Source: Spirochaetia bacterium
GTDB lineage: Bacteria; Bacillota; Desulfotomaculia; Desulfotomaculales; JAJYZD01
Assembly: GCA_035530395.1 (NCBI GenBank)
Contig: DATKUX010000180.1
Location: forward strand, 1-25,922
DNA: 25,922 nt
Reading direction: 5' to 3'
The notes under the pieces were generated by a model. It saw only the letters and a program-made list of their open reading frames with translations. It searched no databases and had not been told where the DNA came from. Below are positions 10,488-25,922 of this stretch, in pieces. Within the stretch, counting starts at the first letter, position 1, and each line of letters starts with the position of its first letter. A program made the translations under genes and the position numbers.

Positions 10488-11459
10488 GTGGCAGAGGAGA
10501 AAAAACCCCGGTCCGGTTTGGCCAGGGTGTTTGGTAACTGGTTCGTCAGATATACGGTGTTGCTCGTAGCCATTCTCTTTTCCGGCTACGCCCTGGCCCA
10601 GGCCTATAACTGGGGTAAACCGCCGGCCGGAGAGCCACCGGACATATCGCCCGCAGTCGTGGGAACGGTTTACCAGTCCACGCCTGCGGTCACAGAGACC
10701 GAGACGGATCCCAACCCCGTCGCGGCCAAACCACCGCAGAGACCGGTGCCCCCCGGACCGGCGGCGCCCGTGGTGTGGAGTGTACCCCTAAACCAACGGG
10801 CGGTGTTCATCACCATCGACGACGGCTGGTTCCCCAGCCAGGGAGTTCTGGCCCTGATGCAGCAATACCACCTGCCCGTCACGGCTTTTCTCATTCAGAA
10901 GGCGGCGGCGGAACATGCGGCCTACTGGCAGGAATTTCTTAAAGCGGGGGGGCAGATCGAGGACCACACCTATTCACACCCGTTCCTCACTCGCATTCCC
11001 GAAAGCCAGGACCTGACCCAGATTGCCGACCCGGTCAACTACTTTAAAACTTTGGGAGCATCCCCGGACGAACTGCGTCCGCCCTACGGCGACTACGACG
11101 CGGTTGTGCAGAAGGTAGCGGCCCAAGCCGGTATCAAGTATGTGGTGATGTGGGACGCGGTCATGACCGGCGGCAAACTCACCACTGCAAACGGCCGGCC
11201 CCTGGCCCCCGGCGACATCATCCTCCTGCACTGGGTCCCCGGTCTGGACGGCAACCTGGTCACCCTGCTCCATATGCTGCAGCAGCAGAATCTGGGCGTG
11301 GCCAGCCTGGGCGACGCTCTGGACGGCCGGCCGGTACGGATAACCTGGCTGCACGAAAAAGGGGCGGTGAAGACTCAGTCCCCACCCGCCGCAACGTCGA
11401 CCTCGGTTTATAGTAACGTGTACACCCGGCCACAGCCGGCACCCAAGCCCAAGCCCTGA
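10488..11459 (+). CDS. membrane-anchored polysaccharide deacetylase (NodB homology domain), paralog 2
   Basis: GTG start with a GAAGGGA RBS. It has an N-terminal TM helix (YTVLLVAILFSGYALAQAY), a Pro-rich linker, and NodB motifs TIDDGW, HTYSHP, LRPPYG, IILLHW. The catalytic domain is collinear with paralog 1. Confidence 0.85.
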   Translation: MAEEKKPRSGLARVFGNWFVRYTVLLVAILFSGYALAQAYNWGKPPAGEPPDISPAVVGTVYQSTPAVTETETDPNPVAAKPPQRPVPPGPAAPVVWSVPLNQRAVFITIDDGWFPSQGVLALMQQYHLPVTAFLIQKAAAEHAAYWQEFLKAGGQIEDHTYSHPFLTRIPESQDLTQIADPVNYFKTLGASPDELRPPYGDYDAVVQKVAAQAGIKYVVMWDAVMTGGKLTTANGRPLAPGDIILLHWVPGLDGNLVTLLHMLQQQNLGVASLGDALDGRPVRITWLHEKGAVKTQSPPAATSTSVYSNVYTRPQPAPKPKP

Positions 11460-12035
11460 ACGGCCGTAACCGGTACCTTTTAACGCCGTCAGATATTCCC
11501 CGGCCAGGCGGCGGCCGATTGCAGTGAGCATCCATTCTTCCACCGAGGCGTTCAATCTCTGCCAGTACTCTTTCGGATCCAACCGGAAGCGGATGCTGTC
11601 GACCATGAAACCCTCCGCAGTGAAGCGCCACAGTTTATCGGCGTCCTTGACCAGGGCATCGTTTAGGGATACGGCCGTGAGCCCCGAATCATGGTTCCCG
11701 ACGATAGCCAGGATCTCCTGCCACCAGCGCCCTGGATAGCCGCTCGCGCACAGGATTTCCCTGGCCAAACGCACTCCCTCGACTTCATGAACCCTGTTCA
11801 GCCCTTTGTCCGATCCAGGCCCAAAGGCCTTCAACTGGAGATCCTCGGGCACGCACGACCATCCCACGTCATGCAGGATAACGGCAGGGATGACCACTTC
11901 CGCCTGGCCTCCTTCCTCCGCCAGCAGGGCGCGGGCGAAGTCCAGGGCTATCCCGGTATGCAGGCGGTTGGCCCGGGTGGCGAGGTAGGGCAGGGCCAGC
12001 TCCATAATGCGCGGCCAGAGACTTTCCGCAACCAT
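10974..12035 (-). CDS. HD-domain metal-dependent phosphohydrolase, paralog 1; conserved 192-aa core (11460-12035) plus a 162-codon read-through tail antisense to the deacetylase gene
   Basis: The core is collinear with the 191-aa paralog (H...HD...HD...D: LHT, LHDVGW, NHDSG, KDADKL). At the position of the paralog's TAA stop this copy has TCA (11457-11459), and the frame stays open to 10974. Confidence 0.75.
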   Translation of the reverse strand: MVAESLWPRIMELALPYLATRANRLHTGIALDFARALLAEEGGQAEVVIPAVILHDVGWSCVPEDLQLKAFGPGSDKGLNRVHEVEGVRLAREILCASGYPGRWWQEILAIVGNHDSGLTAVSLNDALVKDADKLWRFTAEGFMVDSIRFRLDPKEYWQRLNASVEEWMLTAIGRRLAGEYLTALKGTGYGRSGLGLGCRLWPGVHVTINRGRRCGGWGLSLHRPFFVQPGYPYRPAVQSVAQAGHAQILLLQHMEQGDQVAVQTGDPVQEDDVAGGQGPAVCSGEFAAGHDRVPHHHILDTGLGRYLLHNRVVVAVGRTQFVRGCSQSFKVVDRVGNLGQVLAFGNASEERV

Positions 12036-12628
12036 TTTAGCCTACCTTCCTGTTACCGGCCGTCACCGGTTTGCTGCAACCGGGCCAGGCACTCGCCGGC
12101 CAGGCGCCGGCCGCTTGGCGTCAGCAGCCACTTTTCCACCCGGGAGTTCAAAGCCCGCCAGTTGCTGGCGGGATCCAACCGGAGGCGGGTGGCGGCAAAG
12201 GCAAAACCATCCTCCGAAAAGCGCCACAGTTTGTCGGCGTCCTTGACCAGGGCATCATTGAGGGACAACGCCGTCCGCCCCGAGTCATGCTGGTCGATGA
12301 TGGCCAGGATGTCCGGCCACCAGGCTTCCGGATAACCGCTTCGGGTCAGGATTTCCCGGGCCAAACGCACGCCCTCCACTTCGTGGATGCGGTTGAGGCC
12401 GCGGTCGGCCTGCGGTCCGAAGGCCTTCAACTGCAGTTCCTCGGGCATGCACGACCAGCCCACGTCATGCAGGGTGACGGCGGGTATGACCACTTCCGGC
12501 CGACCTCCTTCCTCCGCCAGCAGGGTGCGGGCGAAGTCCAGGGCTATCTCGGTATGCCGTTGGTTGCCCCGGGTAGCGAGGTAGGGGAGGGCCAGTTCCA
12601 TAATTCGCGGCCACAGAGTTTCTTCCAT
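11460..12628. repeat. tandem direct duplication of the HD phosphohydrolase gene (two ~576-bp units, 17-bp spacer)
   Basis: The two proteins align without internal gaps, with one extra residue at the paralog-1 N-terminus. By eye the majority of residues are identical. The DNA also shows long identical runs (e.g. GACGCCGACAAACTGTGGCGCTT region). Confidence 0.8.
12053..12628 (-). CDS. HD-domain metal-dependent phosphohydrolase, paralog 2
   Basis: 191 aa with motifs RHTEIAL, LHDVGW, QHDSG, KDADKL. The ATG is 4 nt after the HAD stop. Confidence 0.85.
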   Translation of the reverse strand: MEETLWPRIMELALPYLATRGNQRHTEIALDFARTLLAEEGGRPEVVIPAVTLHDVGWSCMPEELQLKAFGPQADRGLNRIHEVEGVRLAREILTRSGYPEAWWPDILAIIDQHDSGRTALSLNDALVKDADKLWRFSEDGFAFAATRLRLDPASNWRALNSRVEKWLLTPSGRRLAGECLARLQQTGDGR

Positions 12629-12632
12629 CGTC

Positions 12633-13283
12633 TCAGCTCCCAGGCAGGAAATCCTTGAGTTCCAACAGGGAGGACAGCCAATAATCCGGATGGGCGGCCA
12701 GGAGTTCTCCCGTTCCCGTCTCCCCTCCCGCCACTATGGCCACCCTTACCCCGGCGGAGCGGGAGGCCAGGATGTCGGTAATGCTGTCGCCGACGAACAG
12801 CGCTTCGTTTGTACCGGCCTTCAAGCCGGCAAGACATTTCGTTATGCCCTCGCCTTCGGGTTTCATGAGGGTCACATCGTTGCGCGTCAGGAGGAGGGAG
12901 AAATAAGCGCGCAGTCCGAACCGGTCCATGACTTGGGAGACGGCTGCCCGGCCCACGTTGGTCACCAGTCCCGCCGGCACGGCTGTTTCCCGGAGAAACG
13001 TCAGCAATTCACGGGCTCCCGGCCGGGGCGACCAGCGGGTAAGGGCATCGAGATCGTAGCGGTCATAGATGGCCGTCAGACGTTCCCGCCAACCCGGCCG
13101 TATGCCGGGCGACGCCATGGTAACGGCTGTGTTCCACATCCGGGCGTAATTGGCGGCCGGGAAAAGGGAAGCCGGGAAGCCCCACTCCTCCAGGGCTGTT
13201 CTCAGCTCCCTTTCTCCTGCCTGCAAGTTCCACTGAAAGTCGACGAGCGTACCTTCCAGGTCGAATAAGACCGCCTTAATCAT
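12633..13283 (-). CDS. HAD-superfamily hydrolase (subfamily IA-like phosphatase)
   Basis: 216 aa with GGAGGGAAG RBS. Motif I is FDLEGTLVDF (D-x-E variant), with motif II VTN and motif IV GDSITD. Confidence 0.85.
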   Translation of the reverse strand: MIKAVLFDLEGTLVDFQWNLQAGERELRTALEEWGFPASLFPAANYARMWNTAVTMASPGIRPGWRERLTAIYDRYDLDALTRWSPRPGARELLTFLRETAVPAGLVTNVGRAAVSQVMDRFGLRAYFSLLLTRNDVTLMKPEGEGITKCLAGLKAGTNEALFVGDSITDILASRSAGVRVAIVAGGETGTGELLAAHPDYWLSSLLELKDFLPGS

Positions 13284-13318
13284 CGGTGCTTCCCTCCGGA
13301 TTGAACCATGGCCCGTAG

Positions 13319-14983
13319 TTAAAGCGACGGGATGCTACTTTCGGCCCGGTCGATCTCTGTTTCCAATTGTTCTCTGAGAACCTTTTTGTTCACCTTGCCG
13401 GAATCACCCACCACCGGCAGGCCGTCGACGACTTCCAGGCGCTCCGGCAGCTTGAAGGAAGCCAGCTTTTTCTCCTGCAGAAACTCCTTTGCTTCGGCAA
13501 GGGTGAAGGTTTGGCCGGGCCTGGGTACGACAAAGGCACAGGCCCGCTCCCCGAGTTCGCGGTCCGGGAAACCGACTACCACCACCAGCTTTATCTTCGG
13601 GTGCTCCTGCAACAGGCCCTCGATCTCCGCCGGGTAAATATTCTGGCCGCCCCGGATGATCATGTCCTTGGTCCGGCCCATGATCCAGAGACATCCCTCA
13701 TCCCATTTCACGGTGTCACCGGTGGTCGTCCAACCTTCGGGGTTGAAAACAGCGGCCGTGCTTTCCGGCTCCCGGTAGTAGCCGGCCGGCGAATGCGGAC
13801 CCCGGAACCAGAGCTGGCCGGGATCGCTTTCCGTAACCTCGTTTCCGTGTTCATCCAGCAGCCGGACGGCATTGCCCGGCAGGGGCCGTCCCACGGTCCT
13901 CCTTCGCAGGTCGGCCGGGTCATCCACCCGGCAGCCGGAGACGGAGCCCACATCCTGGGTGCCGAGGTCACTCGTTATTACGCCGCCCAGGCGCCTTTCC
14001 GCCTCCTGCGCCACATCCGGGGGCAGGTAACCGCCGGCCGAACGGATGAAACGCAACGAGAGGTCGTATTCCTCCACCGGTTGCTCCAGCATGCGGACCA
14101 GATGGGTGGGAACCACCCCGATGCAGGTGGCTTTCTCTTTGGTGATCAGATTGAGCGCTCTTACGGCTGTAAATTCCTCCAGGAGAACGGTCCTGGCCCC
14201 GACCAAAGGGGCCGCGAAGTAGGTGAGCGTGCCGGCGGCCCCGCCGGCGAAAGGGGCGATGGCCGCCGCGGTATCCCCCGGTCCCAGGTTCCAGATATCC
14301 ACCCGGGCCTTGGCCGTGCACAGACGCGGGGCGATGTTCCACTCCACCAGCTTGGGCAGACCGGTCGTGCCGCTGGTGCTGGTCAGAAAGGCCACTTCCC
14401 GGAAGGGATCGAAGCGGCGCTCTTCCAGGATCCGCAGTTTCTCCGCCGCCACCGGATCCCGGGTGAGCTTCATCAGGGAGTAGGTATCCCCGGGGCCTCC
14501 GGACGGCACGTCCTCGCTGAGCAGGAAGGTGTAGCGGAAGTTGGGGGAGAACTTCCTCAGACTCCCGTACATCGCCAGGTAATCGAAATCACGGTAGGTA
14601 TGGGGAATGACGACCGCCGAGACGGCCATCTTCTCCACCATGTAGGATAGTTCTTTCTCCCGCATGTAGGCGTAGACCAACAGGGAGATCAGGCCGGCCC
14701 GTTCGGCGGCCATGCGCGCCAGAAAGGCATACACCTCGTTGGGAGCCTGGATGAGGATGCGGTCGCTCTTCTTTAGACCCATCTCCACCCAGCGGTAGGC
14801 CAGGCGGTCCACCAGATCCCTGGCCTGGGCCCAGGTCAGCCGGTACCGGGAGTCCACCACGGCTTCCTTGTCCGGCATTTCCCGGGCGTTTTGGGCCCAG
14901 AAATCGTAGAACGTTTCGGACGTCCAGTAACCCTTATCCCTGAACTCGTCGATTACTTCGTCTGTGTACCGGATAACTCGCAT
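13319..14983 (-). CDS. aryl-acid--CoA ligase (AMP-forming; EntE/DhbE- and aromatic/alicyclic acid-CoA ligase-like)
   Basis: AMP-binding motif TSTSGTTGLPKL. The N-terminus YTDEVIDEFRDKGYWTSETF resembles aryl-acid adenylating enzymes. C-terminal motifs GDT...RTKDMIIRGGQNIYP and FKLPERLEVVDGLPVVGDSGKVNKK. The ATG at 14983 (GGGGTGGTG RBS, 21 nt after the UbiD stop) is preferred over the TTG at 15001. Confidence 0.85.
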   Translation of the reverse strand: MRVIRYTDEVIDEFRDKGYWTSETFYDFWAQNAREMPDKEAVVDSRYRLTWAQARDLVDRLAYRWVEMGLKKSDRILIQAPNEVYAFLARMAAERAGLISLLVYAYMREKELSYMVEKMAVSAVVIPHTYRDFDYLAMYGSLRKFSPNFRYTFLLSEDVPSGGPGDTYSLMKLTRDPVAAEKLRILEERRFDPFREVAFLTSTSGTTGLPKLVEWNIAPRLCTAKARVDIWNLGPGDTAAAIAPFAGGAAGTLTYFAAPLVGARTVLLEEFTAVRALNLITKEKATCIGVVPTHLVRMLEQPVEEYDLSLRFIRSAGGYLPPDVAQEAERRLGGVITSDLGTQDVGSVSGCRVDDPADLRRRTVGRPLPGNAVRLLDEHGNEVTESDPGQLWFRGPHSPAGYYREPESTAAVFNPEGWTTTGDTVKWDEGCLWIMGRTKDMIIRGGQNIYPAEIEGLLQEHPKIKLVVVVGFPDRELGERACAFVVPRPGQTFTLAEAKEFLQEKKLASFKLPERLEVVDGLPVVGDSGKVNKKVLREQLETEIDRAESSIPSL

Positions 14984-15004
14984 CTGTCCGCACCACCCCA
15001 ACCC

Positions 15005-16423
15005 TTAATCAAGTCCCAACTCACTCCAGCGGGCCCGCACCTTCTTGACTATTTCCTCATCCAGGAAGATTTCGTCCGGTTTGCGGTCCCACTCGTAAGG
15101 AATGGTCGCGTCCATGATGATCTTGGAACCGATGTCCCGCGCCGTGATGGGCAGGGCGGGATCAAGGGGCGTCGAACGGGCCCGCTTGATGATCTCCGTG
15201 CTCCGGTTCGGGTCGTAGCGCACGGCCAGGGCCCACAACACTTTGTCCAGGTCGTCGGCCGGAATGTCCTCGTCGACGATGATGGTACCCTTCATCCCGT
15301 AGTGGCCCGTCGTGGACCCGTGCACCGCCATGCCGACATGCATGGAATGGCCGGGATACATCGTCTTCACGGAGACGATGCTCCAGAACCGGCCGCCCAT
15401 CTGGGGCGGCAGGTAGACCGACTTGATCCCCGGCACGCCCGCCGCCAGCAGGTCGGTCCAGAGAGTGGCCGTCCTGTTCAGGGACTGGATCATGTGGGTA
15501 TCGGTGATCGGCTTGCCCACCGTGGTCGACCAGAAAACGGGCTTCTCACGCCGCCATACCCGCTGCACGTGCAGGACTTGTTTGGGCCATTCCTCGCCGG
15601 TCTTGCCGGAATAGTAGCCGGTGTACTCGCCGAAGGGCCCCTCTTCCCGCAGGTCGTTGGGGTCGATATAACCATCCAGGATGATTTCGGCATGGGCGGG
15701 CAGGGGCAGGCCGCTCACGTCGCTGGTGAAGACCTCCACGGGCTCTCCCCTTAGGGCACCGATGACGTCGTACTCATCGACCTGCTGCTGGATGAAGGTG
15801 CTGGACACCAGGAAGTGCAAGGGATCGCAGCCGATCACGGCCGCGGCGGGCATCAGCTTCCCCGCCTTCTGGTACTGTTTGAAATGGAAGTCGGCATGCT
15901 TGCCCTTGATGATCTGAACTCCCACATGGTTCCTGTCGTGGACCATCATCCGGTACGTTCCCAGGTTGACCCATCCCGTTTCCAAATCGCGGCTGACCAG
16001 GTAGACCGCCGTGCCGATGAACCGGCCGCCATCCTGGGGATAGAAAAAGGGCACGGGAAAATCCCTCAGGACGTCGACGTCGCCTTCGTCGACCACCTTT
16101 TCGCAGACCGGACCGGAATCCACCCGGACGGGTTTGATCAACCCTTTCCGCGTGGTCTCGACCCAGGTTCTGGCCATTTCGCACATGGAATAGTCCGTGG
16201 GCATGCCCAGAGTGATGGCCAGCCTTTTGTCCGTGGTCATGGAGGACGTCAGCACCGGTATGTCATAGCCCTTGACGTTCTCGAAAAGGAGGGCCGGGCC
16301 TTTTTTTTCCTCGTTGAGCTTGGCGATATGCGCGAGTTCAAGGTTCCAGTCCACTTCGGCGGAGATCCTTTTGAGCTCCCCTTCCTGTTCGCACTTATCG
16401 ATCCATTCCCGCATACTTTTCAT
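15005..16423 (-). CDS. UbiD-family (prFMN-dependent) aromatic (de)carboxylase; candidate phenylphosphate/phenol-type carboxylase catalytic subunit
   Basis: ~472 aa. UbiD hallmarks: N-terminus MKSMREWIDKCEQEGELKRI, then WVNLGTYRMMV and GPFGEYTGYYSG. The ATG at 16423 is preceded by an AAGGGGG RBS. The 6-codon extension in the track contains that RBS. Confidence 0.9.
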   Translation of the reverse strand: MKSMREWIDKCEQEGELKRISAEVDWNLELAHIAKLNEEKKGPALLFENVKGYDIPVLTSSMTTDKRLAITLGMPTDYSMCEMARTWVETTRKGLIKPVRVDSGPVCEKVVDEGDVDVLRDFPVPFFYPQDGGRFIGTAVYLVSRDLETGWVNLGTYRMMVHDRNHVGVQIIKGKHADFHFKQYQKAGKLMPAAAVIGCDPLHFLVSSTFIQQQVDEYDVIGALRGEPVEVFTSDVSGLPLPAHAEIILDGYIDPNDLREEGPFGEYTGYYSGKTGEEWPKQVLHVQRVWRREKPVFWSTTVGKPITDTHMIQSLNRTATLWTDLLAAGVPGIKSVYLPPQMGGRFWSIVSVKTMYPGHSMHVGMAVHGSTTGHYGMKGTIIVDEDIPADDLDKVLWALAVRYDPNRSTEIIKRARSTPLDPALPITARDIGSKIIMDATIPYEWDRKPDEIFLDEEIVKKVRARWSELGLD

Positions 16424-16483: not shown

Positions 16484-17557
16484 TCAACTCGTAAACAGTT
16501 TTTTCCCTGTCAGCAGGTTGCCGGCGATGAGATCGAGGGCGCTTGCTTTCGGTTGGGATAAAGGGACGTTCGGCTTCTGCGTCCAAACGGTTTCCGGCCG
16601 GGTCTGCACCAGGATGATGTTTTCCGGAAAAGCCAGGTCGGCATCAATGGCCCATTCCATGTCCTGGGGAATACCCCAATGCTTTTCCACCATCTTGCCC
16701 AGTCTGGCCAGGTGGATTATCTCTCCATCGGAGAGACAGGGCGCGTCCCGCCTCTCGGGGGGCACCTCCAGTGACTTCACGTTGCCACCCTCATCGTAGA
16801 CCAGTTCGATGGTCTTGTTACAGATTATCCGTTTGGAGATCTCCAGGGTGACCTTGTCCAGGACATACTTGTCCGGGGTAACCTGCCCGCTGACCAGGCT
16901 CTCTCCCAGGCCCCAACTGCCCTCGATAAAGATCCTGGACCGGTCGCCGTTTACCGGATCGAGGGTGAACATAACGCCGGAGGACTTTGACTTGACCATC
17001 TTGAGCACGGCCACACCGATGGGGGAACTCTCCACACGCATGCCGCGCTGCAAACGGTAGGCCATGGCCCGCCCGGTGAAGGAACTTGCCCATACCTTGA
17101 CCACATGGTCTATTACCTCCCTTTCACCCTTCACATTGAGGAAGGTATCGAACTGTCCGGGCATGCTGACGGGCCCGCTGGAGCGCACGGCGACGTCGGC
17201 CTCGGCCAGGTTGCATTTCTTGGACAGTTCGCGGTAATAGGTGAGAATGGGTTCCTTTATTCCCTCCGGCATGGGGCTTCCTTCAACCAGGTTCCGGATG
17301 TACCGGCTGGCTTCCTCGAAGAGGTTGATATCCTCTTTCAGGCGCTCCACCATAGGATCAAGGTATTCGATGATCATCCGGCCCAAACCGGTTTCCTCGA
17401 CGAACTGCTCGTACGCGTCCAGGGTGACGGCATAACCGGGAGGAACAGGCATACCGGCCCGGATCATCTCGCCCAGGTTGTAGCACTTTTTGCCGGCTGT
17501 TCTATAGTTGTCATTGGCCAGCTGTTCCAGCCAACATACATACGGCTTACCGCTCAT
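16484..17557 (-). CDS. ppsB: phenylphosphate synthase beta-like subunit (PEP synthase/PPDK N-terminal ATP-grasp domain only)
   Basis: 357 aa from the ATG at 17557 (GGGGAGGGG RBS 8 nt upstream). It has nucleotide-binding ATP-grasp motifs (GKKCYNLGEMIRAGMPVPPGYAVT, VAVRSSG) and no swivel-His or PEP-binding domains. Confidence 0.8.
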   Translation of the reverse strand: MSGKPYVCWLEQLANDNYRTAGKKCYNLGEMIRAGMPVPPGYAVTLDAYEQFVEETGLGRMIIEYLDPMVERLKEDINLFEEASRYIRNLVEGSPMPEGIKEPILTYYRELSKKCNLAEADVAVRSSGPVSMPGQFDTFLNVKGEREVIDHVVKVWASSFTGRAMAYRLQRGMRVESSPIGVAVLKMVKSKSSGVMFTLDPVNGDRSRIFIEGSWGLGESLVSGQVTPDKYVLDKVTLEISKRIICNKTIELVYDEGGNVKSLEVPPERRDAPCLSDGEIIHLARLGKMVEKHWGIPQDMEWAIDADLAFPENIILVQTRPETVWTQKPNVPLSQPKASALDLIAGNLLTGKKLFTS

Positions 17558-17706: not shown

Positions 17707-17751
17707 CCCCTTTGTTTATGGAAGCGATGTAGGGGTTGTAAAACAAAGGGG
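17707..17751. other. 11-bp perfect inverted repeat (CCCCTTTGTTT ... AAACAAAGGGG, 23-nt loop) in the 234-nt gap between the channel gene and ppsB
   Basis: Read directly from the sequence. A smaller GC hairpin, CCGCC-TTC-GGCGG, lies just downstream on the minus strand (~17682-17694). Confidence 0.3.
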
Positions 17752-17791: not shown

Positions 17792-18379
17792 CTATTTAAA
17801 AACCGGACGACCAAGTGGCAATATGGGTCTTTCGAAGTGTTCCGCCCACAGTACCGCTGTTGAAGAGTAGATGCAGAACGCAGCGAATAGCAAAAGCAGG
17901 TACCCGGCTATAACGCCTGCGTTGGCTGAGCCACCTAAGATAGAAACCCCTAGTAACAGGAAGGCCACACCAACTTCTGCTATGCCTGCCATAAGCAACC
18001 AGCTTATGCGTCCGAACCCGACCGCATATGTCTCTGTGATAACAAACAACGTAACCCAGAAAACACCCATTACCTCGGGAGTGAACGCCCCTGGCTTCGG
18101 CGCCTGAATCACTTGTTGCCATAATGTAATGGCTGCGCCAAGGGTGATTACCGTGCCGAATACCCCGGATATGGTGCCCAGCAGTAATTCTCCTCTTTTG
18201 AAGAAGATGATACCGGCTAGCAGTTGTGGCAAAGAACATGCCAACAAGATCCCTATCAAGAGGGGGATCGTTGTGGGAGGCACCCATCCCGCGTAAACAG
18301 CCCCTACCGACGCGGTGAGCACAGCCACCGCATTAATAGCCCAGGGAATCTGATTGGCCCACTCTTGTTGTTGAGGCAC
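17792..18379 (-). CDS. GPR1/FUN34/YaaH (AceTr, SatP-like) family membrane channel, divergent member
   Basis: 195 aa with about six hydrophobic helices. GTG start with an AAAGGAGTG RBS. It is collinear with E. coli YaaH/SatP in the core (LPQLLAGIIFFKRGELLLGTISGVFG vs IAQIFAGLLEYKKGNTFGLTAFTSYG) and the C-terminus (FERPILPLG vs FGRTVLPIG). The N-terminal NPAPLGL signature is not conserved. Confidence 0.75.
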   Translation of the reverse strand: MPQQQEWANQIPWAINAVAVLTASVGAVYAGWVPPTTIPLLIGILLACSLPQLLAGIIFFKRGELLLGTISGVFGTVITLGAAITLWQQVIQAPKPGAFTPEVMGVFWVTLFVITETYAVGFGRISWLLMAGIAEVGVAFLLLGVSILGGSANAGVIAGYLLLLFAAFCIYSSTAVLWAEHFERPILPLGRPVFK

Positions 18380-18421: not shown

Positions 18422-20257
18422 CTAGAGTAACGTGATAACCCCCTGGTTGCCGTCCACCCGGATCAACTGTCCGGTTTTAATGGTCGATGTGGCGAAACCG
18501 GTACCTACTACGGCCGGCAAGCCATACTCCCGGCACACGATGGCCGCATGGGACATGATTCCGCCGACATCCGTGACGCAGGCCCTGATTCTGGTAAAGA
18601 TCGGTGCCCAACTGGGGGAGGTGGTGGCCGCGACCAGAATCTCGCCCTCCTGCAGGGTATTGAGCTCTTCCAAGGTCCGGATCACCTTGGCTTTGCCTTC
18701 CACAACTCCCGCCGACCCGGCGAAGCCGCTTAATTCCTTGACATCCGCGAGGTTCACCTTACCCGCGGAGAGCCACGCGTCCATCGATTTGCTGGTTATC
18801 CCCCACAACATGATCGTGAAGGGTTCGCTTATGGTCTCCGGCGCAACCCCCAGGGCCGGTGGAGGCATGAATTCCCTGAACTTGTTGATGACATCCTTGC
18901 GCCAGGCGATTTCCGGCGGCCAGTAGGACGGCCCGCGGCCTTTGACCCCGGTGGCCCAGGCCGTCAGGAGATCATACAGCGCTTCCTGGATCTCGTAGCG
19001 GTTAAGGTACCAGATGTCCTCCCCATCGGCAAAGAAACCATGATTGACAAAAATCCGGGACAATTCACGGATTTTGTTCCAAAACACACCATGGAACCAG
19101 TGCTCCACGTAGAAATTATGGTTTTCGACATAGGGGAAAACCCTTTGGGCCACGGCAATCAACTGCCGGAAAGTATTCCGGTCATCTTCCGCAGCCAAAA
19201 GGTCCGTATATTCGGCGATGATCCGGTCCCGCTCCAGGCGCACCTGTTCCAACGGGCGGGCCAGGCTTTGCCCTTTTTCCAGTTTCCCGATATAGCTCTG
19301 GATGGCCATGAAAGGTATTTCCAACCGGTCCAGCCAGGAATAGTGGTCATGGTACCACCCGGTCCCCGAAGACAGGTAGAACCACGGGTATTTAGCCTTC
19401 TCCAGTCGGTCCAGCCACTGGCGCCCCGGTTCGGTGGTACCCAGCCGGTCGATGATTTCCTGGGGCCGGGAAGACGACTTGACGATTTCAGCCACGCCGA
19501 GATCGACGGCCGCCTGGGCCAGTTCTTTCAACCTCTCGTCCGGCTGGAACAATATCACGTCGATGCCGGCCACCATCTGGGTAATCGTCCGGTCCTCGAT
19601 GCCGGGGAAAGCCTTGTGGCAGAACTCGGTCAAGGGAAGGTAGGCGGCGTAGCCCAGGTTCAAGAATTCGAAGTGGTACTGCCAGGCCCGCAGCGCACAA
19701 TCGATCAAATGGGTGTAGGTTTTGGTCAACTGGTAACCACTGCTTAAGCCAATGCCCTCAAAAACCAGGGAGCTATCCTCCATCTCGGGAAGGTCTTTGA
19801 TCTCGATATCTTCCAGTTCCTTGATAAGGGCCTCCATTTTCTTCTGCCACTTGGCGTACAACTCATCCCAGTTCTCATAGTAAAAGCCGGCGCGCTCCAA
19901 AAAGTGGGGCAACCTTTCCTGAATCTTCGCCGGATCGGTTACCGGTACCGGGCTGATATAGATATATCCGTTAACGATGCGATGATCTATACCCAAAGCC
20001 GGTGGGATCATGAAAATCCTGCTGTTATACTGTGATAGGGCCATAAACCAGGCTTCATCCCAGATCAGGTCGAAAGGGTACATGGGCTCGGGGTAGTGAA
20101 GCCCGTCGTAATACCAGAGGACACTTTCCTCATAGGCTTTTCTCTCCGGATCATCCTTGCTGACCCGGTAAAAGTACGGATACATCCTTTCCCAGCCCTC
20201 GGTACCGGGAATCGTCTTTACCTCGCTGGGCATGGTGAATGCCCTCTGCTCGGCCAT
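18422..20257 (-). CDS. ppsA: phenylphosphate synthase alpha-like subunit (large N-terminal substrate domain plus C-terminal PEP-utilising mobile His domain)
   Basis: ~611 aa from the ATG at 20257 (AAAGGAGGT RBS 8 nt upstream). The C-terminus GGIMSHAAIVCREYGLPAVVG is the phospho-histidine swivel domain. The N-terminal ~500 aa (GWERMYPYFY...HYPEPMYPFD) matches the PpsA-type architecture rather than full-length PEP synthase. Confidence 0.8.
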   Translation of the reverse strand: MAEQRAFTMPSEVKTIPGTEGWERMYPYFYRVSKDDPERKAYEESVLWYYDGLHYPEPMYPFDLIWDEAWFMALSQYNSRIFMIPPALGIDHRIVNGYIYISPVPVTDPAKIQERLPHFLERAGFYYENWDELYAKWQKKMEALIKELEDIEIKDLPEMEDSSLVFEGIGLSSGYQLTKTYTHLIDCALRAWQYHFEFLNLGYAAYLPLTEFCHKAFPGIEDRTITQMVAGIDVILFQPDERLKELAQAAVDLGVAEIVKSSSRPQEIIDRLGTTEPGRQWLDRLEKAKYPWFYLSSGTGWYHDHYSWLDRLEIPFMAIQSYIGKLEKGQSLARPLEQVRLERDRIIAEYTDLLAAEDDRNTFRQLIAVAQRVFPYVENHNFYVEHWFHGVFWNKIRELSRIFVNHGFFADGEDIWYLNRYEIQEALYDLLTAWATGVKGRGPSYWPPEIAWRKDVINKFREFMPPPALGVAPETISEPFTIMLWGITSKSMDAWLSAGKVNLADVKELSGFAGSAGVVEGKAKVIRTLEELNTLQEGEILVAATTSPSWAPIFTRIRACVTDVGGIMSHAAIVCREYGLPAVVGTGFATSTIKTGQLIRVDGNQGVITLL

Positions 20258-20342: not shown

Positions 20343-22292
20343 CTATTCACCTCCTAAACTGGTTATCAACTTTAAAGCCAACTGTACCTGCAGGTTCGTC
20401 TCCGGATCGTCTAAATCGATGTGGGCGATTTCCCTGATTCTTTTCAGCCGGTATCTCAGGGTGCCCGGGCTCAGGAAGCCTTTCCGCGCCGCTTTGAGGA
20501 TATTGCAATTGTTTTGGTAGTAAAGGTCCAGGGTGGACAGCAGGTGGGATCCGTGTTTTTCCTCGTAGGCCAGCAGCGGGCCGATAACCCGGCCGGCAAA
20601 CTCCTTGAAGGCCTCCCGGTTGATAGAAAGCAGGCTGAAGACACCGAGTTGCTCGTAGGCGAAAGAGCAGTTCCGGCGCCCCAGGGACCGGGCGATTTCC
20701 AGGCAGGCCCGGGCTTCGCGGTAGGAACGGGCGAAATCGGTGACCGTAAAACAGGGCGCGCCTATGCCCAGCCACCAGGTTTCATGAGCCATCTGGACGG
20801 AGAGTTGGTTGGCCAGGTTGTGGAGGACGGTCAAAGACTGGTTGTTTATCTTGTTTGGTTCGGCAGCAGGATCCGGTATCAACATGATGAGATTATTATT
20901 GTATTCAGCGAGAAGGGCGAAGATATGGGCGGATCTTATCGTCCGGTCCACTATTTGCAGCAGGTTCCTGCGGCCGCCCGAAACAGGCGGGGCAGGTCTG
21001 GTGCCCGGATACCTCGCATTGGTCTCCAGAACCACCACGCGGTGAACCTGGGACAAATCCAGTCCAAGCTGCCTTGCCTTCCAAATCACCCCTTCTTCAA
21101 ATTCGTAGCTGCCTTCCATCAATTCCTTCAAAAAGTTTTTCCTGAGTCTAAGTTCGGTTTCAAATGCGGCCTTTTGTTTCAACAAGTCAAGAGCGACTAC
21201 CGTGCTGGTGTGTTCCAGGGCGATATAATCGAGTTCGTTCAATTTGCGCTTACCTTCCAGCGTGGCCACAAAGCCCAGATGATCCTGTCCGGCGATGACC
21301 GGAAGGACTATCAGCTGGTCCTCGTTCCCTTCCGGTGTGGTCCCGTTCAACCGGATGAGACGTTTACCCTGAAAGAGGGACAATATCTCTTCCTTGCGGG
21401 CCGGGTCCGCGCTGGCGTTTTGCCAGGTTGCCCGCAGGTCGGAACCACCGGCGGCCGGCCTTAGGCAGACTGCCAGGGGAAAAAGAGACTGGTCCGTGAC
21501 GATAACGGAATTATCAATTATTTCGGCCAGGCTCCTGGTAATGGCATCGAGACCGTGTCCTTCGAGGACCAGGTTGGTAAGCAGGTTATGGATGGTCATT
21601 GATTTTTGCAGGGCCGCATGCTGGGAAGACAGCACGTTGTTCAGTTTGCGCAATTGGGTCAGGTTATCCTGTAATTTAAGATTGCTCTGCGCGCAAATTC
21701 TGGCGTTGCCGAGGACTGTGGATACCTGGCAACCCAGGAGGTACAGGAAATCCTGGTCGTACCTGGTGAACGGCCTGCCGCCCAGTTTGTCGACGGCCAA
21801 AAGGGCGCCGATATTCCGGCCGGCGAAGGAGAGCGGGACTCCGCAAAGGTTCCGGGCTCTGACGGCCGGGGCTTCGTTCAGTTGGAGCAGCGATGTCTCG
21901 TTCAGGAGGAGCGGGCTGCTCAGTTGCAAAATGTCGGCCAGGGGCCCCCGGGTGACGGCGGCGGAATGCCTTTGCACTTCGTCGTCCCGGCTGTGGTCGT
22001 AGAGAGATAATTCCCGCCCCTCCTCCATCGCCAGAACCAGGTAAGCCTTCTCGGCCTGGAGCAAGGCGCGGGCGTGGCGGACCAACCGATCCGGCAAGTC
22101 CGTGGAATCGACATGGCGGTGGAGATCCATAACGGCCTTATATACGGAGCGCCAGCGAGTCAGCAAATGTCTTTCGGCCACGTCCAGTTTAACCGTTCGG
22201 GCCACCGGTAGATTCTCGGTAATGTGGATCACCCCCCTGTTCCAGTCTTCCGGGGGACCGGTTGACGGCGGCCAAAAAGGACGCCTGCTCAA
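20343..22292 (-). CDS. PucR/CdaR-family transcriptional regulator with N-terminal GAF-like sensor domain
   Basis: C-terminal PucR HTH (LSTLDLYYQNNCNILKAARKGFLSPGTLRYRLKRIREI) and a GAF-like segment (GVPLSFAGRNIGALLAVDK). The start is uncertain: TTG 22292 has no RBS, and the alternatives are GTG 22232 and ATG 22130 (AAGG RBS). Confidence 0.85.
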   Translation of the reverse strand: MSRRPFWPPSTGPPEDWNRGVIHITENLPVARTVKLDVAERHLLTRWRSVYKAVMDLHRHVDSTDLPDRLVRHARALLQAEKAYLVLAMEEGRELSLYDHSRDDEVQRHSAAVTRGPLADILQLSSPLLLNETSLLQLNEAPAVRARNLCGVPLSFAGRNIGALLAVDKLGGRPFTRYDQDFLYLLGCQVSTVLGNARICAQSNLKLQDNLTQLRKLNNVLSSQHAALQKSMTIHNLLTNLVLEGHGLDAITRSLAEIIDNSVIVTDQSLFPLAVCLRPAAGGSDLRATWQNASADPARKEEILSLFQGKRLIRLNGTTPEGNEDQLIVLPVIAGQDHLGFVATLEGKRKLNELDYIALEHTSTVVALDLLKQKAAFETELRLRKNFLKELMEGSYEFEEGVIWKARQLGLDLSQVHRVVVLETNARYPGTRPAPPVSGGRRNLLQIVDRTIRSAHIFALLAEYNNNLIMLIPDPAAEPNKINNQSLTVLHNLANQLSVQMAHETWWLGIGAPCFTVTDFARSYREARACLEIARSLGRRNCSFAYEQLGVFSLLSINREAFKEFAGRVIGPLLAYEEKHGSHLLSTLDLYYQNNCNILKAARKGFLSPGTLRYRLKRIREIAHIDLDDPETNLQVQLALKLITSLGGE

Positions 22293-22546: not shown

Positions 22547-22590
22547 GTCTATAGATATTTTAGTCAATAGTTGACCAACCTGTCTATAGC
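22547..22590. promoter_or_regulatory. AT-rich operator-like module: GTCTATAG direct repeat flanking the 13-bp palindrome GTCAATAGTTGAC
   Basis: GTCTATAG occurs at 22547-22554 and 22582-22589. The first copy is part of the palindrome TCTATAGA (22548-22555). GTCAA-TAG-TTGAC is at 22563-22575, with a further GTCAAC half-site at 22610-22615. The module lies upstream of the PucR-family gene on the minus strand. Confidence 0.35.
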
Positions 22591-22795: not shown

Positions 22796-23365
22796 CTAAC
22801 GGCTGTGGTCGCCCCAGCGCCGGAATAGATCATGTTCGATGGCGAATTGATCCAGTATTTTGCCCACCGTCTGATTGACGATGTCGTCAAGGGTGACGGG
22901 CAGGTGATAGAAGGCCGGCATGGGGGGAAGGACGACGGCGCCCAGTTCGGCCACTGCAACCAACAACTTCAAGTGGCCCGCATGCAGGGGGGTCTCCCGG
23001 GGAACAACCACCAGTTTTCTTCTTTCCTTGAGGGTGACATCGGCCGCGCGGACCAGGAGATTGTCGTTGTAAGAGTTGGCAATGGCCGAAACTGTCTTCA
23101 TCGAACAGGGTACAACGACCATTCCGTCCGTCCTGAACGAACCGCTGGCCACCGCAGCCCCGATATCGGAGTTGTCGTAGACGCGGTGGGCCAATCTCCC
23201 TACCTGCTCGACGGAATAGGCGGTTTCCAGCCTGATTGTCCTCCCGGCCGCCTCCGAGACAACCAGGTGAGTCTCGATTTCCGGACAGGCAGAAAGGGTC
23301 TCCAAAAGCCTGATCCCGTATATGGCCCCCGAGGCACCCGATATCCCCACCACAATCCTGGTCAT
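22796..23365 (-). CDS. ubiX: flavin prenyltransferase UbiX (prFMN synthase)
   Basis: 189 aa from the ATG at 23365 (GGGGGTGG RBS). MTRIVVGISGASGAIYGIRLLETL...MVVVPCSMKTVSAIANSY...VVVPRETPLH is the canonical UbiX/Pad1 fold signature. The 98-codon upstream extension in the track is not family-like. Confidence 0.9.
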   Translation of the reverse strand: MTRIVVGISGASGAIYGIRLLETLSACPEIETHLVVSEAAGRTIRLETAYSVEQVGRLAHRVYDNSDIGAAVASGSFRTDGMVVVPCSMKTVSAIANSYNDNLLVRAADVTLKERRKLVVVPRETPLHAGHLKLLVAVAELGAVVLPPMPAFYHLPVTLDDIVNQTVGKILDQFAIEHDLFRRWGDHSR

Positions 23366-23614
23366 GTCGCCACCCCCGCTGATATTGTCCATTGTTCCTG
23401 CCGGGCAAACGCCTAGGTGCTTGGAGAGTCCAACGGGTCGTCCGCTTTGCTTAGGCCCATTGTACAACAGACCCCGGGGGAAAACCATATCCATATGTAG
23501 CAAAAAATGTGAAGAAAAATTGGCTAAATTCGGCCATCCATGGCCGCGGCACATGGCCGGGGGGAAAGGACCAGACATTGCCGGGTGGCAAAGCCGGCCC
23601 GCCTGGTGGGTAGC

Positions 23615-23653
23615 GGGCAAAAAGAAAATCGTCCCGGCGACCGGGACGATTTT
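23615..23653 (-). terminator. Rho-independent terminator after the molybdopterin hydroxylase gene
   Basis: Perfect 13-bp stem AAAATCGTCCCGG-CGA-CCGGGACGATTTT (23625-23653). On the minus strand it is followed by a CTTTTTG U-rich tail. It sits ~100 nt after the stop at 23751. Confidence 0.75.
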
Positions 23654-23750
23654 GGACAAAGTGCCGATGTCGGGATCCGTCAGGCAAGAGGGCTGGCTGG
23701 CAGCGCGGCGGAAAGGTCCCTTTAACGGCGCGGACCTCCTATCCGGATCC

Positions 23751-25922
23751 TCATCCCTCCTGGGCCCGCTTCTCCTTCAGGGCCCGCCAGACCTTCTCAT
23801 AAGACAGCGGCAGGCTGTCCAGCCGGATACCCATGGCGTCGTAAATAGCGTTGGCGTAGCAGCCCATGGTGGGTATGGTGGCACCCTCCCCCACCTCTTT
23901 GACGCCCCACGGACCGGCCGGCTCCGGTTCCTCGCTATAGACCAGGGCCGAGGTTATCCGGGGCATATCCAAAGCCGTCGGCAGACGGTACTCACCCAGG
24001 TTCCCGTTGAGGATTTTGCCCTTATCGTCAAAGATAACCTGTTCCCAAATCGACTCGCCCATACCCATGAAGAGGGCCCCGTGCACCTGGGCGTGCAACA
24101 GCGACGGGTTGATCACCATGCCGCAGTCGTGCACGTCCCAGACTTCGGCCACCTTGATCTCCCCCGTCTCGGCGTCGATCTCCACTTCGCTGATCTGGGT
24201 GGCGAAGCTATAGGCAGGCGAAGTTCCCACCGCCGCTCCCTTGAACTTCCCGCCCAGCTTGGGCGGCGCATAGGAGCCCTTCCCCACCAGCGGACCCCGT
24301 TTGACGAAAAAGGTGCGGGCTACCTCGGCGAAAGTGAACTTGGCCTCGCCGGTCTCCCGGTCGAAAATTACGCCTAAACGGCAGTCGAGACTGGCCGCAT
24401 CCACCGCCAGTAGTTCGGCCGCCATTCCCATCAGCTGGGTCTTCACCTCTTCACCAGCCCGCTTGACGGCCCAGCCGGACATCAGGGTCTGGCGGCTGGC
24501 GTAGGCGCCGAAATCGTGGGGGGCGGTTTCGGTGTCCGCGGACACGATCTTCATGTTGTCATAGGTAAAGCCCATGGCCTCGGCCGCCATCTGACAGAGG
24601 ACGGTGTCACTCCCCTGGCCGATGTCCACCGCCCCGGTATACAGGGTGGCCGAGGTGCCGTCCTCGTTGACCCGGACGACGGCGGAGGCATGAGGTAGAT
24701 CGGTGCGGTAGATGGGATAACCCGCCCCGGAAACGAAGCTGCCCACGGCGACGCCGATGCCGCGGCCCGGCGGCAGGTGGCCCTTCTTTTCGTCCCAGCC
24801 GGACAGTTCGCGCGCCTTTTCTATGCAGGCCGCCATCTCACAGGAATTAACCTGAAAGTCGTTCGGGGTAACGGTATTGGGCCGCCGGGCGTTGACCAGC
24901 CGCAATTGCAGCGGGTCCATCCCCAGGTCCTTCGCTACCATGTCCAGGTGGCACTCCAGGGCGTAGCGGGGTTGCGGAGCCCCGTGGCCGCGCTGGGCGC
25001 CGCAGGCCGGCAGGTTGGTGTAAACACGGTACATATCGAACTTGAAGTTGTCAAACTCATAGGTTAGGGGCAGCATGGCCCCGGCATAGTAGGCGCTGGC
25101 CACGCCCAGACTGGTGTAAGCGCCCCCGTCCATGATGAAGTTGGCGTGCAGGCCCAGGATACGGCCGTCCTTATCCACCCCGGTGGTGACCTCCATGTAC
25201 TGGCGGTGCCGGCCCCGGTTGTGGGCAAACATCTCGTGGCGGTCGTAGAACATGCGGACCGGTCGCCCGGTCAGACGGGCCAGAACCGCCCCGGCAAACT
25301 CCAGGCCGGTTGGTTCCAGCTTGCCGCCGAATCCCCCGCCCACGAAAGGCTTGATTACCCGGACGTCGCCCATCGGCAGTCCGAACTCCCGGGCCAGGTA
25401 ATACTGGAAATAGTGGGGCGACTGGGTGCTGGAGTAGACCGTGAGCTTGCCGTCCTGCCACATGGATATGGCCGAATGGGGTTCGATCGGGCACTGGTAC
25501 GTCCTCTGGCCCACAAAACGGTCGGTGCGTACGTGGTAGGCCCCGGCAAAGGCCTGGTCCACATCGCCGAAGTGCTGGTGGATCTCGGTGTTGATATTCC
25601 TGGGGAACTCGTCGTGGATCTGGGCCGTCTCCTCATTCATGGCCTTTAACGGGTCCAGGACGGTCGGTAGCTCCTCGTATTCCACCTTGATCAACTTAAG
25701 GGCTTTGTAAACGGTCTCCTCGTCCAGGGCGGCCACAGCCGCCACCTTGTCGCCGACGAAGCGAACCTTATCGATGCAAAAGATGTTCTCGTCCCAGCGG
25801 GCCGGACTGATCCCGTATTTCATCTCCGGCACGTCGCGATGGGTAATCACCGCTTTGACCCCGGGCAGCTTCTCGGCCTCGCTGGTGTCGATGCTCAGGA
25901 TACGGGCGTGGGCATGCGGGCT
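23751..25922 (-). CDS. xanthine dehydrogenase/aldehyde oxidase-family molybdopterin-binding large subunit, 5' end beyond the window; candidate 4-hydroxybenzoyl-CoA reductase alpha subunit
   Basis: The frame stays open upstream of the track's GTG start to base 25922 (SPHAHARILSIDTSEAEKLPGVKAVITHRDVP...), which is the normal family N-domain. Other family motifs are VIKPFVGGGFGGK, GAQRGHG, DIGQGSDT and WGVKEVGEG. The Hcr assignment rests on context only. Confidence 0.85.
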   Translation of the reverse strand, partial: SPHAHARILSIDTSEAEKLPGVKAVITHRDVPEMKYGISPARWDENIFCIDKVRFVGDKVAAVAALDEETVYKALKLIKVEYEELPTVLDPLKAMNEETAQIHDEFPRNINTEIHQHFGDVDQAFAGAYHVRTDRFVGQRTYQCPIEPHSAISMWQDGKLTVYSSTQSPHYFQYYLAREFGLPMGDVRVIKPFVGGGFGGKLEPTGLEFAGAVLARLTGRPVRMFYDRHEMFAHNRGRHRQYMEVTTGVDKDGRILGLHANFIMDGGAYTSLGVASAYYAGAMLPLTYEFDNFKFDMYRVYTNLPACGAQRGHGAPQPRYALECHLDMVAKDLGMDPLQLRLVNARRPNTVTPNDFQVNSCEMAACIEKARELSGWDEKKGHLPPGRGIGVAVGSFVSGAGYPIYRTDLPHASAVVRVNEDGTSATLYTGAVDIGQGSDTVLCQMAAEAMGFTYDNMKIVSADTETAPHDFGAYASRQTLMSGWAVKRAGEEVKTQLMGMAAELLAVDAASLDCRLGVIFDRETGEAKFTFAEVARTFFVKRGPLVGKGSYAPPKLGGKFKGAAVGTSPAYSFATQISEVEIDAETGEIKVAEVWDVHDCGMVINPSLLHAQVHGALFMGMGESIWEQVIFDDKGKILNGNLGEYRLPTALDMPRITSALVYSEEPEPAGPWGVKEVGEGATIPTMGCYANAIYDAMGIRLDSLPLSYEKVWRALKEKRAQEG

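Follow-up and report, generated by a model that had tools for sequence, protein, structure and literature searches.

A probable single-PpcB gene cluster for anaerobic phenol use on a contig of the Bacillota

Anaerobic use of phenol through phenylphosphate has been described in Thauera, which has a PpsABC synthase and a PpcABCD carboxylase, and in strict anaerobes with PpcB as the single carboxylase subunit of the UbiD family in the cluster. In Desulfatiglans anilini, the phe cluster encodes the alpha and beta subunits of phenylphosphate synthase (pps-alpha, pps-beta), the beta subunit of the carboxylase (ppc-beta), a ligase, and a reductase's alpha subunit; the cluster is induced by phenol, and phenylphosphate synthase activity has been measured (PMC6114531). 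The same report describes this layout for Geobacter metallireducens, as well as phenol induction of, and a need during growth on phenol for, the single-PpcB clusters of both organisms (PMC6114531). Gmet_2100-2102 of G. metallireducens form a putative operon of pps and ppc homologues (PMC1924859), and the layout was named the strict-anaerobe type in Desulfotomaculum gibsoniae (PMC4148979). Ju et al. found PpsAB, PpcB, and the UbiX-like PpcY to be the core common to syntrophs and to nitrate, sulfate, and iron reducers (PMC5946492). Phosphorylation of phenol proceeds without PpsC (PMC6114531). The string of nine genes considered here lies on the minus strand of a stretch of 25,922 nucleotides (nt), a single contig (DATKUX010000180.1 of assembly GCA_035530395.1) that is called the window throughout. 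A Logan assembly of identical sequence, with an independent gene call, is L001; L numbers denote the genomic loci compared.

The locus very probably encodes the upper pathway of anaerobic phenol use of the single-PpcB type, in a strict anaerobe of the Bacillota that is probably Peptococcaceae-like. Its layout is one already described, and the locus adds to the strict-anaerobe type, with accessory genes specific to its lineage. An initial annotation had recognized a Pps, single-UbiD, and ligase system unlike that of Thauera, which holds; its further proposals of a phenol/benzene hybrid and a new layout are not supported. In the pathway as predicted from orthology to Thauera, PpsB would bind ATP and pass a diphosphoryl group to His570 of PpsA, and phenol would be converted to phenylphosphate with release of AMP and phosphate. 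PpcB, with prenylated flavin mononucleotide (prFMN) supplied by UbiX, would then add CO2 at the para position as phosphate leaves, and a DhbE-like ligase may convert the resulting 4-hydroxybenzoate to 4-hydroxybenzoyl-coenzyme A (CoA). The molybdenum (Mo) enzyme 4-hydroxybenzoyl-CoA reductase (Hcr), whose alpha subunit passes its equivalog model, would take off the hydroxyl group to give benzoyl-CoA. A PucR-family protein with a GAF domain is likely the activator, and a HAD phosphatase with a D-x-E motif and two HD hydrolases could serve as accessory phosphohydrolases of a kind that recurs in phenol clusters. An AceTr-like channel might move an aromatic substrate or a small acid over the membrane.

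Domain labels derive from Pfam and NCBIfam profile scans of the window proteins, and the Thauera reference proteins are those of the T. aromatica phenol cluster in genome locus L081. PpsA reached 914.5 bits on NF006152 (cut-off 723), a model on which Thauera PpsA scores 1324 bits, and is 58.6% identical to T. aromatica PpsA over 608 residues. It consists of an N-terminal substrate domain and a C-terminal phosphoenolpyruvate (PEP)-utilizer histidine domain, in which His570 aligns with the phosphorylated His569 of Thauera within a nearly identical block, GG(I/V)MSHAAIVCREYG. Models for PEP synthase and rifampicin phosphotransferase match only the last 100 residues. A check on family membership proposed in the initial annotation places PpsA, through NF006152, in the PRK08296/PpsA model family and not with either of these. 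PpsB reached 312.7 bits on PPDK_N and is 42% identical to Thauera PpsB. With PpsA passing its equivalog model and PpsB carrying PPDK_N, the Pps-type kinase pair claimed earlier is supported, and orthology to Thauera identifies PpsAB as the predicted ATP-dependent phenol-phosphorylating enzyme. In the window, ppsA and ppsB are set apart by the AceTr-like gene. Sequence searches of the PDB returned generic UbiD and PEP synthase relatives only, and no solved structure of a Pps or Ppc protein.

The UbiD-family protein scored 582.4 bits on TIGR02724 (phenyl_P_beta; cut-off 468.95), whereas three other models fell far below their cut-offs: phenyl_P_alpha gave 186.7 bits, VdcC 291 (cut-off 650), and quinone UbiD 231. 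With Thauera PpcB it shares 55% identity, with Thauera PpcA 30%; it is 100% identical to NCBI HUW65954.1 and has UbiD_N, UbiD, and UbiD_C domains all above the Pfam cut-off. The motif EGPFGEYTGYY and residues N153, H176, and E217 are invariant in 16 homologues; in view of Fdc1/UbiD structures, these are the putative catalytic and metal-binding residues. The protein thus falls into the PpcB equivalog group and not with quinone-biosynthetic UbiD, a grouping that the initial annotation had left to be checked. UbiX reached 272 bits on NF004685 (cut-off 188) and is 63% identical to the UbiX of the Thauera cluster. By orthology, PpcB with UbiX is predicted to be a prFMN-dependent carboxylase.

PpcB is the only UbiD-family subunit found in the window. 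When the 25.9-kb window was searched by tblastn with Thauera PpcA, PpcC, PpcD, PpsC, and ORF7, nothing was found except PpcB, which PpcA matched at 29% identity; the deltaproteobacterial PpsC, the UPF0261 protein, and a PNPOx-like protein gave no match. PpsC, whether from Thauera or from deltaproteobacteria, was without a match in the window at E values up to 10, and the best window match of PpcC (E = 0.025) lies inside the regulator gene and is not significant. The 563-nt gap between ubiX and the regulator gene contains small open reading frames (ORFs; 90 and 97 amino acids) that are noise-like and have no similarity to PpcC, PpsC, or PpcD. The earlier statements that the locus has a single UbiD subunit and no ORF resembling PpsC or the gamma subunit are borne out by these searches, as is the contrast drawn with the four-subunit carboxylase of Thauera, whose second UbiD, gamma, and delta subunits were not found in the window.

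The ligase reaches the cut-off of no NCBIfam model, scoring 174 bits on benz_CoA_lig (cut-off 375), and its closest solved relatives are the 2,3-dihydroxybenzoate-AMP and salicylate-AMP ligases. In related loci, orthologues of 44-83% identity are encoded downstream of PpcB. Conserved position and similarity to hydroxybenzoate-adenylating enzymes suggest that it is a 4-hydroxybenzoate-CoA ligase. HcrA scored 1010.7 bits on TIGR03194 (cut-off 994.55) although its gene is truncated, and it also carries MoCoBD_1 and MoCoBD_2. The hcrA frame is open to the window end and matches residues 46-352 of the L002 HcrA at 91% identity; in L002 and L090 the Hcr beta and gamma genes precede hcrA, and in the window they would fall beyond its end. 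Orthology points to Hcr as the predicted dehydroxylating enzyme. A second AMP-binding acyl-CoA ligase gene, at positions 1-826 of the window (minus strand) and cut by the window start, encodes a protein 24% identical to the operon ligase.

The minus-strand string runs in the order PucR/GAF regulator, PpsA, AceTr-like protein, PpsB, UbiD protein, aryl-acid CoA ligase, HAD, HD, HD, and ubiX and a Mo-hydroxylase large-subunit gene lie upstream on the same strand. All of these were found where the initial annotation had placed them, and each of the eleven gene labels is backed by Pfam or NCBIfam profiles. The features are as follows.

23751..25922, minus strand, HcrA-type 4-hydroxybenzoyl-CoA reductase alpha (Mo) subunit, truncated 5′ by the window end (TIGR03194, MoCoBD_1, MoCoBD_2)
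23625..23653, minus strand, terminator-like hairpin between hcrA and ubiX (13-bp stem, 7 G-C pairs, T-rich tail)
22796..23365, minus strand, UbiX flavin prenyltransferase (Flavoprotein/UbiX, NF004685; 189 amino acids in L001)
22549..22589, minus strand, promoter-like hexamers and, overlapping them, an imperfect inverted repeat of 19 nt, upstream of the regulator gene (promoter and repeat scans)
20343..22232, minus strand, PucR-family regulator with N-terminal GAF (Pfam GAF_2, GGDEF_2, HTH_30)
18422..20257, minus strand, PpsA, phenylphosphate synthase alpha, the predicted substrate and phospho-histidine subunit (NF006152, PEP-utilizers domain)
17792..18379, minus strand, AceTr-like (GPR1/FUN34/YaaH) six-helix membrane protein (PF01184, weak)
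17707..17751, minus strand, perfect 11-nt inverted repeat 3′ of the AceTr-like gene (repeat search)
16484..17557, minus strand, PpsB, phenylphosphate synthase beta, the predicted ATP-binding subunit (PPDK_N)
15005..16423, minus strand, PpcB, sole UbiD-family carboxylase subunit of the window (UbiD_N, UbiD, UbiD_C, TIGR02724)
13319..14983, minus strand, aryl-acid CoA ligase of the ANL superfamily (AMP-binding, AMP-binding_C)
12633..13283, minus strand, HAD-IA phosphatase (HAD_2, Hydrolase)
12053..12628, minus strand, HD-domain phosphohydrolase 1, HD1 (Pfam HD, 33.5 bits)
11466..12035, minus strand, HD-domain phosphohydrolase 2, HD2, a tandem paralogue with its ORF open to 10974 (homology to HD1)
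11366..11386, minus strand, terminator-like hairpin at the 3′ end of the string (9-bp stem, T-rich tail)

The genes are tightly spaced. Seven of the gaps first reported (42, 234, 60, 21, 35, 4, and 17 nt) agree with the L001 gene call; the eighth, between regulator and ppsA, is 85 nt with the ATG start of a 611-amino-acid PpsA and 79 nt, as first given, only with the GTG start of a 613-amino-acid form. A ribosome-binding site, AAGGAGG, stands before the ATG of the 611-amino-acid PpsA, and another, GGGGAGGGG, before the ATG of ppsB. About 80 nt separate the hairpin at the 3′ end (11366..11386) from the point at which HD2 homology stops. Terminator-like sites in the region numbered 16, vs 16.9 expected from shuffles, and only individually strong hairpins are noted here; the promoter scan was likewise not enriched over shuffles (4 found vs 5.2 expected). 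The hairpin at 23653-23625 probably ends the hcrA transcript before ubiX. The best promoter-like match upstream of the regulator gene (10/12, at 22586-22557) is overlapped by an inverted repeat, 22549-22567 / 22571-22589, with 79% complementary arms, which might be an operator. An Rfam scan of the whole window gave nothing at gathering thresholds.

For comparison, 80 loci with PpcB relatives were collected from species-representative genomes by a PpcB alignment scan, ranked by similarity to the query, and annotated with flanks of up to 10 kb by tblastn with window and Thauera proteins. About 67 of the 80 are of the single-PpcB type, nearly all with PpsA-PpsB directly upstream, and neither PpcA nor PpcC was found within 10 kb in any of them. 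The other 13 are of the Thauera type: 11 have PpcA, PpcC, and PpcD beside PpcB, and the remaining two, on cut-off contigs, were assigned from the tree. In this neighbour-joining tree of 78 PpcB sequences, which is rooted with PpcA and carries no support values, the Thauera-type PpcBs form a monophyletic group and the window PpcB is placed next to L002 in the other clade. The Thauera-type layout, PpsA-PpsB-PpsC-PpcB-PpcD-PpcA-PpcC-(UbiD)-UbiX, also occurs in a Thermincola metagenome-assembled genome (MAG). The majority layout, PpsA-PpsB-PpcB-(ligase)-UPF0261-PpsC-UbiX, is found in Geobacter/Geotalea, Burkholderiales, Desulfomonilaceae, Syntrophaceae, and others. A third layout, PucR-PpsA-PpsB-PpcB-ligase with HD, HAD, UbiX, and Hcr, is that of Bacillota, namely the window, L002/L090/L091, L012, and L086. 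PpcB identity to the window is 92% in L002, L090, and L091, 82% in L086, and 65% in L012. All five have PucR, PpsAB, PpcB, ligase, and UbiX, in varying order; HAD, HD, and Hcr are each missing from one of the five, and AceTr occurs only in L086. Since the gene set recurs in these loci, the arrangement in the window is not due to chance.

The comparison also draws attention to a gene that the window does not have. A UPF0261 gene follows PpcB, or PpcB and ligase, in 55 of about 68 single-type loci (70 with the two cut-off Thauera-type contigs), as in L008:13237-14463 and L038:11565-12863, in the range L003-L061 and in others, but in 0 of the 11 full Thauera-type loci. A PpsC-like CBS gene is present in 43 of the 70 loci counted as single-type. 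UPF0261 is present in the relatives L086 and L012, and is absent, as from the window, from L002, L090, L091, L023, L026, and L049; across more than 20 kb of L002, L090, and L091 there is neither UPF0261 nor PpsC. MarK, a member of the UPF0261 family, is an ATP-dependent kinase of phenolic compounds, reported in a paper that does not mention anaerobic phenol clusters (PMC12624787). The UPF0261 protein of single-type clusters might act as another phenol kinase or assist PpcB in phosphoryl transfer.

Among described systems, the single-PpcB clusters of G. metallireducens, D. anilini, D. gibsoniae, and Syntrophorhabdus are closest, having, like the window, no PpcA, PpcC, or PpcD in the cluster (PMC6114531, PMC1924859, PMC4148979, PMC5946492). 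The window PpcB shares a clade with the Geobacter/Geotalea-type loci. Most loci of this kind carry UPF0261 and a PpsC-like CBS gene, whereas the window has neither, and the D. anilini phe ligase is PaaK-like, whereas that of the window is DhbE/FadD-like. The window in turn has a PucR/GAF regulator, the HAD (D-x-E) gene, two HD genes, and the AceTr-like gene inside the pps pair. The initial annotation had regarded the locus as unusually assembled, but its layout is that known for G. metallireducens, D. anilini, and D. gibsoniae (PMC6114531, PMC4148979). With Thauera the window shares orthologues of PpsA (phospho-histidine included), PpsB, PpcB, and UbiX; it lacks PpsC, PpcA, the 10-kDa PpcC, PpcD (a KdsC-type HAD protein), an ORF7-type extra UbiD, and a PaaK-like ligase, and its PpcB belongs to a different clade. 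In the aerobic acetovanillone pathway (AcvAB/HpeHI or MarK, a carboxylase, and AcvF/HpeD), the logic is the same: a phenolic hydroxyl group is phosphorylated, the substrate carboxylated, and the phosphate then taken off by a phosphatase of its own (PMC12624787). A phosphatase role of this kind for the HAD or HD proteins of the window would thus have a precedent. Its carboxylase is, however, not a UbiD enzyme and acts on the acetyl side chain, and except for the Pps-like kinase family the proteins are not orthologous.

The HAD protein is of type IA, with motif I FDLEGTL (D-x-E), has no match to TIGR02726, and is unrelated to the KdsC-type PpcD. Orthologues with D-x-E occur in 12 other loci of the scan as well as in L086 and L089 (the group includes L002, L005, L018, L034, L035, L050, L052, L055, L060, L067, L086, and L089) but in no locus of the Thauera type; motif I reads FD(L/F)EGTLV in all members, Glu replacing the usual second Asp. 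The HAD gene often adjoins UbiX (L002, L005, L018, L052, L055, and L067), and in L089 it lies beside Pps-like genes, no UbiD or UbiX being detected in the part of this locus that was read. Of the single-type clusters, one (L011) encodes a KdsC/PpcD-like HAD. A role of the HAD protein as a pyrophosphatase pulling the ligase reaction was considered and rejected; its best NCBIfam match, PpaX, gave 84 bits against a cut-off of 218.

HD1 and HD2 are 72% identical in amino acids and 78% in nucleotides, and H25, H54-D55, H82, H114-D115, and D130 are invariant in 33 homologues of the family. HD1 has no PDB sequence match; its AlphaFold model (pLDDT 93.5) is most similar in fold to stand-alone HD hydrolases, including Bacillus subtilis YpgQ (TM ~0.66). 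HD2 was not called by the L001 gene caller. HD homologues follow a PpsC-like CBS gene in the full phenol clusters of L083 and L007, whereas in L085 the CBS-HD pair stands by itself; others immediately precede Mo-hydroxylase genes on their upstream side (L083, L084, L012) or are found in an unrelated context (L082). HD and HAD are fused into one 426-amino-acid ORF in L002 (L002:13247-14527) and also in L090 and L091, three independent assemblies, and in all three the fused ORF is followed by ubiX and a second HD gene. It can be argued from this fusion in the closest relatives that HD and HAD act together. The preferred guess is that HAD and the HD proteins, the best candidates within the locus, may take over the part of Thauera PpcD in dealing with the phosphoryl group; a cofactor role, the formation of dimethylallyl phosphate used by UbiX, is about as likely, and the neighbourhood equally allows a role tied to Pps or Hcr. 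That a homomeric PpcB together with the cluster-encoded HD-HAD pair would replace Thauera PpcA, PpcC, and PpcD and UPF0261 is a fairly unlikely proposal. A separate locus, L084:3014-10253, combines a divergent Pps-like pair (27% and 44% identity) with ABM, HD, and a fused Fer2-Mo-hydroxylase and has no UbiD gene; it may represent a different aryl-phosphate pathway.

The AceTr-like protein reached 30.6 bits on PF01184 (Gpr1_Fun34_YaaH; cut-off 25), 24.8 on AceTr_1 (cut-off 50), and 29.9 on SatP (cut-off 297), and belongs to a divergent small subfamily of about 98 clusters. The GC content at third codon positions (GC3) of its gene is 0.55, vs 0.73-0.82 in the adjoining genes. Just after the gene, the arms of the 11-nt inverted repeat, CCCCTTTGTTT / AAACAAAGGGG, stand 23 nt apart. 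Homologues occur within or close to the pps or Mo-hydroxylase clusters of L086, L015, L014, L088, and L089, standing before ppsA in L086 and L015; L002 has none. The gene looks like a recent insertion that split ppsA from ppsB, from a subfamily tied to aromatic catabolic clusters. Homologues of the PucR regulator are encoded next to ppsA in L002 (70%), L086 (50%), and L012 (42%). A second regulator of the nearest relatives (L090:15990-18356) joins XylR_N and V4R, of the phenol-sensing type, to the PucR-type GGDEF_2 and HTH_30.

The most serious alternative is that PpcB is part of a heteromeric carboxylase and needs a second UbiD-like subunit and/or a phosphatase, UPF0261, or PpsC encoded elsewhere, as has been proposed for D. 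anilini; this is possible but on balance somewhat unlikely. In Thauera, CO2 exchange requires the alpha, beta, and gamma subunits and the use of phenylphosphate requires delta; ppc-alpha-like and ppc-delta-like genes of D. anilini lie elsewhere and are transcribed on phenol (PMC6114531); and the UPF0261 gene, frequent in single-type loci and found even in L086 and L012, is missing here. The aniline system of D. anilini (PasAB and two PpcB-like proteins) resembles the window in that a two-subunit Pps-type kinase precedes a UbiD carboxylase without gamma or delta subunits, but its carboxylation took two UbiD-like subunits, which come from two clusters (PMC7500099). Against a missing subunit stand the lack of PpcA and PpcC within 10 kb of any single-type PpcB, the separate clade that these PpcBs form, and L002, L090, and L091, which do without UPF0261 and PpsC over their >20 kb as well. 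Another phenolic or anilinic compound (cresol, catechol, hydroquinone, or aniline) as the natural substrate of the same machinery is unlikely. The Pps/Ppc type can be relaxed in specificity, PasAB phosphorylating both aniline and phenol (PMC7500099), the ligase fits no curated model, and related loci hold several PpsA subfamilies (27-47% identity) that presumably differ in substrate. PasA, however, is only 28% identical to Thauera PpsA (PMC7500099), whereas the window PpsA passes the equivalog model of the Thauera protein at more than twice that identity. Phenol is therefore favoured as the substrate over the others that the initial annotation had raised, and a para-hydroxybenzoate product is in keeping with an HcrA that passes the 4-hydroxybenzoyl-CoA reductase alpha model.

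PpcB could also act as a reversible 4-hydroxybenzoate decarboxylase, or carboxylate phenol directly without phenylphosphate, with Pps serving another purpose. UbiD enzymes are reversible decarboxylases and VdcC is the next-best specific NCBIfam match of PpcB (291 bits), but that score is far below its cut-off, none of the genes called was seen to encode a VdcD-like small subunit, and PpsA-PpsB stands directly upstream of PpcB in nearly all single-type loci long enough to show it, all of which leaves this reading quite improbable. Least credible of all is a hybrid of a phenol system and the Peptococcaceae benzene cluster (AbcD-AbcA-BzlA-UbiX), in which the substrate of the UbiD-ligase pair would be a non-phenolic arene or benzoate. 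The resemblance on which the initial annotation had based this mixed layout is real: in the benzene cluster, too, a UbiD gene is followed by an aryl-CoA ligase gene with UbiX near, and its Peptococcaceae enrichments provide a similar host (PMC5852087), a PpcB at least 90% identical to that of the window being labelled Peptococcaceae. The window differs, however, in having a PpcB equivalog, a Pps pair, and Hcr. Judged by profile models, its UbiD protein is orthologous to PpcB, and its ligase stays well below the benzoate-CoA-ligase cut-off. No PpcC-like small subunit was found in the window by tblastn, and AbcD has been assigned to the PpcC family (PMC5852087). In addition, of the genes that come next after PpcB in 67 single-PpcB loci, 39 are UPF0261 and 18, from several phyla, the window-type ligase; because of these 18 loci, a ligase next to PpcB is to be seen as a standard variant of phenol clusters and not as a benzene-type pairing.

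A single-PpcB pathway for phenol accordingly remains the preferred explanation, and several points weigh against it. The predicted in vitro activity of a single-PpcB phenylphosphate carboxylase went undetected in D. anilini extracts (PMC6114531); the related aniline system needed its second UbiD-like subunit (PMC7500099). UPF0261 is common yet missing from the window, and therefore the cluster may be incomplete; a gene for a second UbiD, PpcD, PpsC, or UPF0261 could lie outside the one contig that makes up the window. The tree that sets the single-type PpcBs apart is without support values. HD2 has no stop at about 11466, and its frame runs for 160 more codons to 10974, across the terminator-like hairpin and antisense to a convergent deacetylase gene (10488-11459), with identical sequence in L001. 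Moreover, gene neighbourhood is the basis for what HAD, HD, and AceTr are proposed to do, and it points in several directions.

The window record is labelled Spirochaetia (HUW65954.1). The PpcB that is at least 90% identical to it and labelled Peptococcaceae is MDA8335068.1, the closest loci are Bacillota MAGs, and a host in the Bacillota is also in keeping with the PucR and PrdR-like regulators; the contig probably came under Spirochaetia through a binning error. Further observations concern the rest of the contig. Composition breaks near 6000, with GC3 of 0.49-0.60 in the genes to the left (window 1-5979) vs 0.70-0.82 to the right (6096-25922), and the sigma-54 regulator at 4534-5979 has 46% GC; the break could be a horizontal-transfer boundary or the mark of a chimeric contig. 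This regulator and the one at 6096-7853 are adjacent PAS-domain sigma-54 activators of the PrdR-like type, located between indolepyruvate oxidoreductase genes and trmL/nth. The alpha-subunit gene of indolepyruvate:ferredoxin oxidoreductase is split into overlapping ORFs (3786-4250 and 2497-3822), each corresponding to part of TIGR03336, the split being due to a frameshift or to an error of assembly. Two tandem paralogous polysaccharide-deacetylase-like genes, at 9571-10380 and 10488-11459 (plus strand), converge on the phenol operon; the second was called PF01522 Polysacc_deac_1 in L001.

Phenol matters both as a major pollutant and as a central intermediate when aromatic compounds are broken down anaerobically. 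In the set of 80 loci, which were ranked by their similarity to the query, the single-PpcB carboxylase far outnumbers the other form. Conceptually the locus adds little; what it gives is a compact Gram-positive version of the system with candidate partners for PpcB in HAD, the two HD proteins, and UbiX. The comparative survey yields testable leads in the UPF0261 link and the HD-HAD fusion. An HD-HAD-assisted PpcB would, if true, couple the release of phosphate to the para-carboxylation of phenol in a third and minimal manner.

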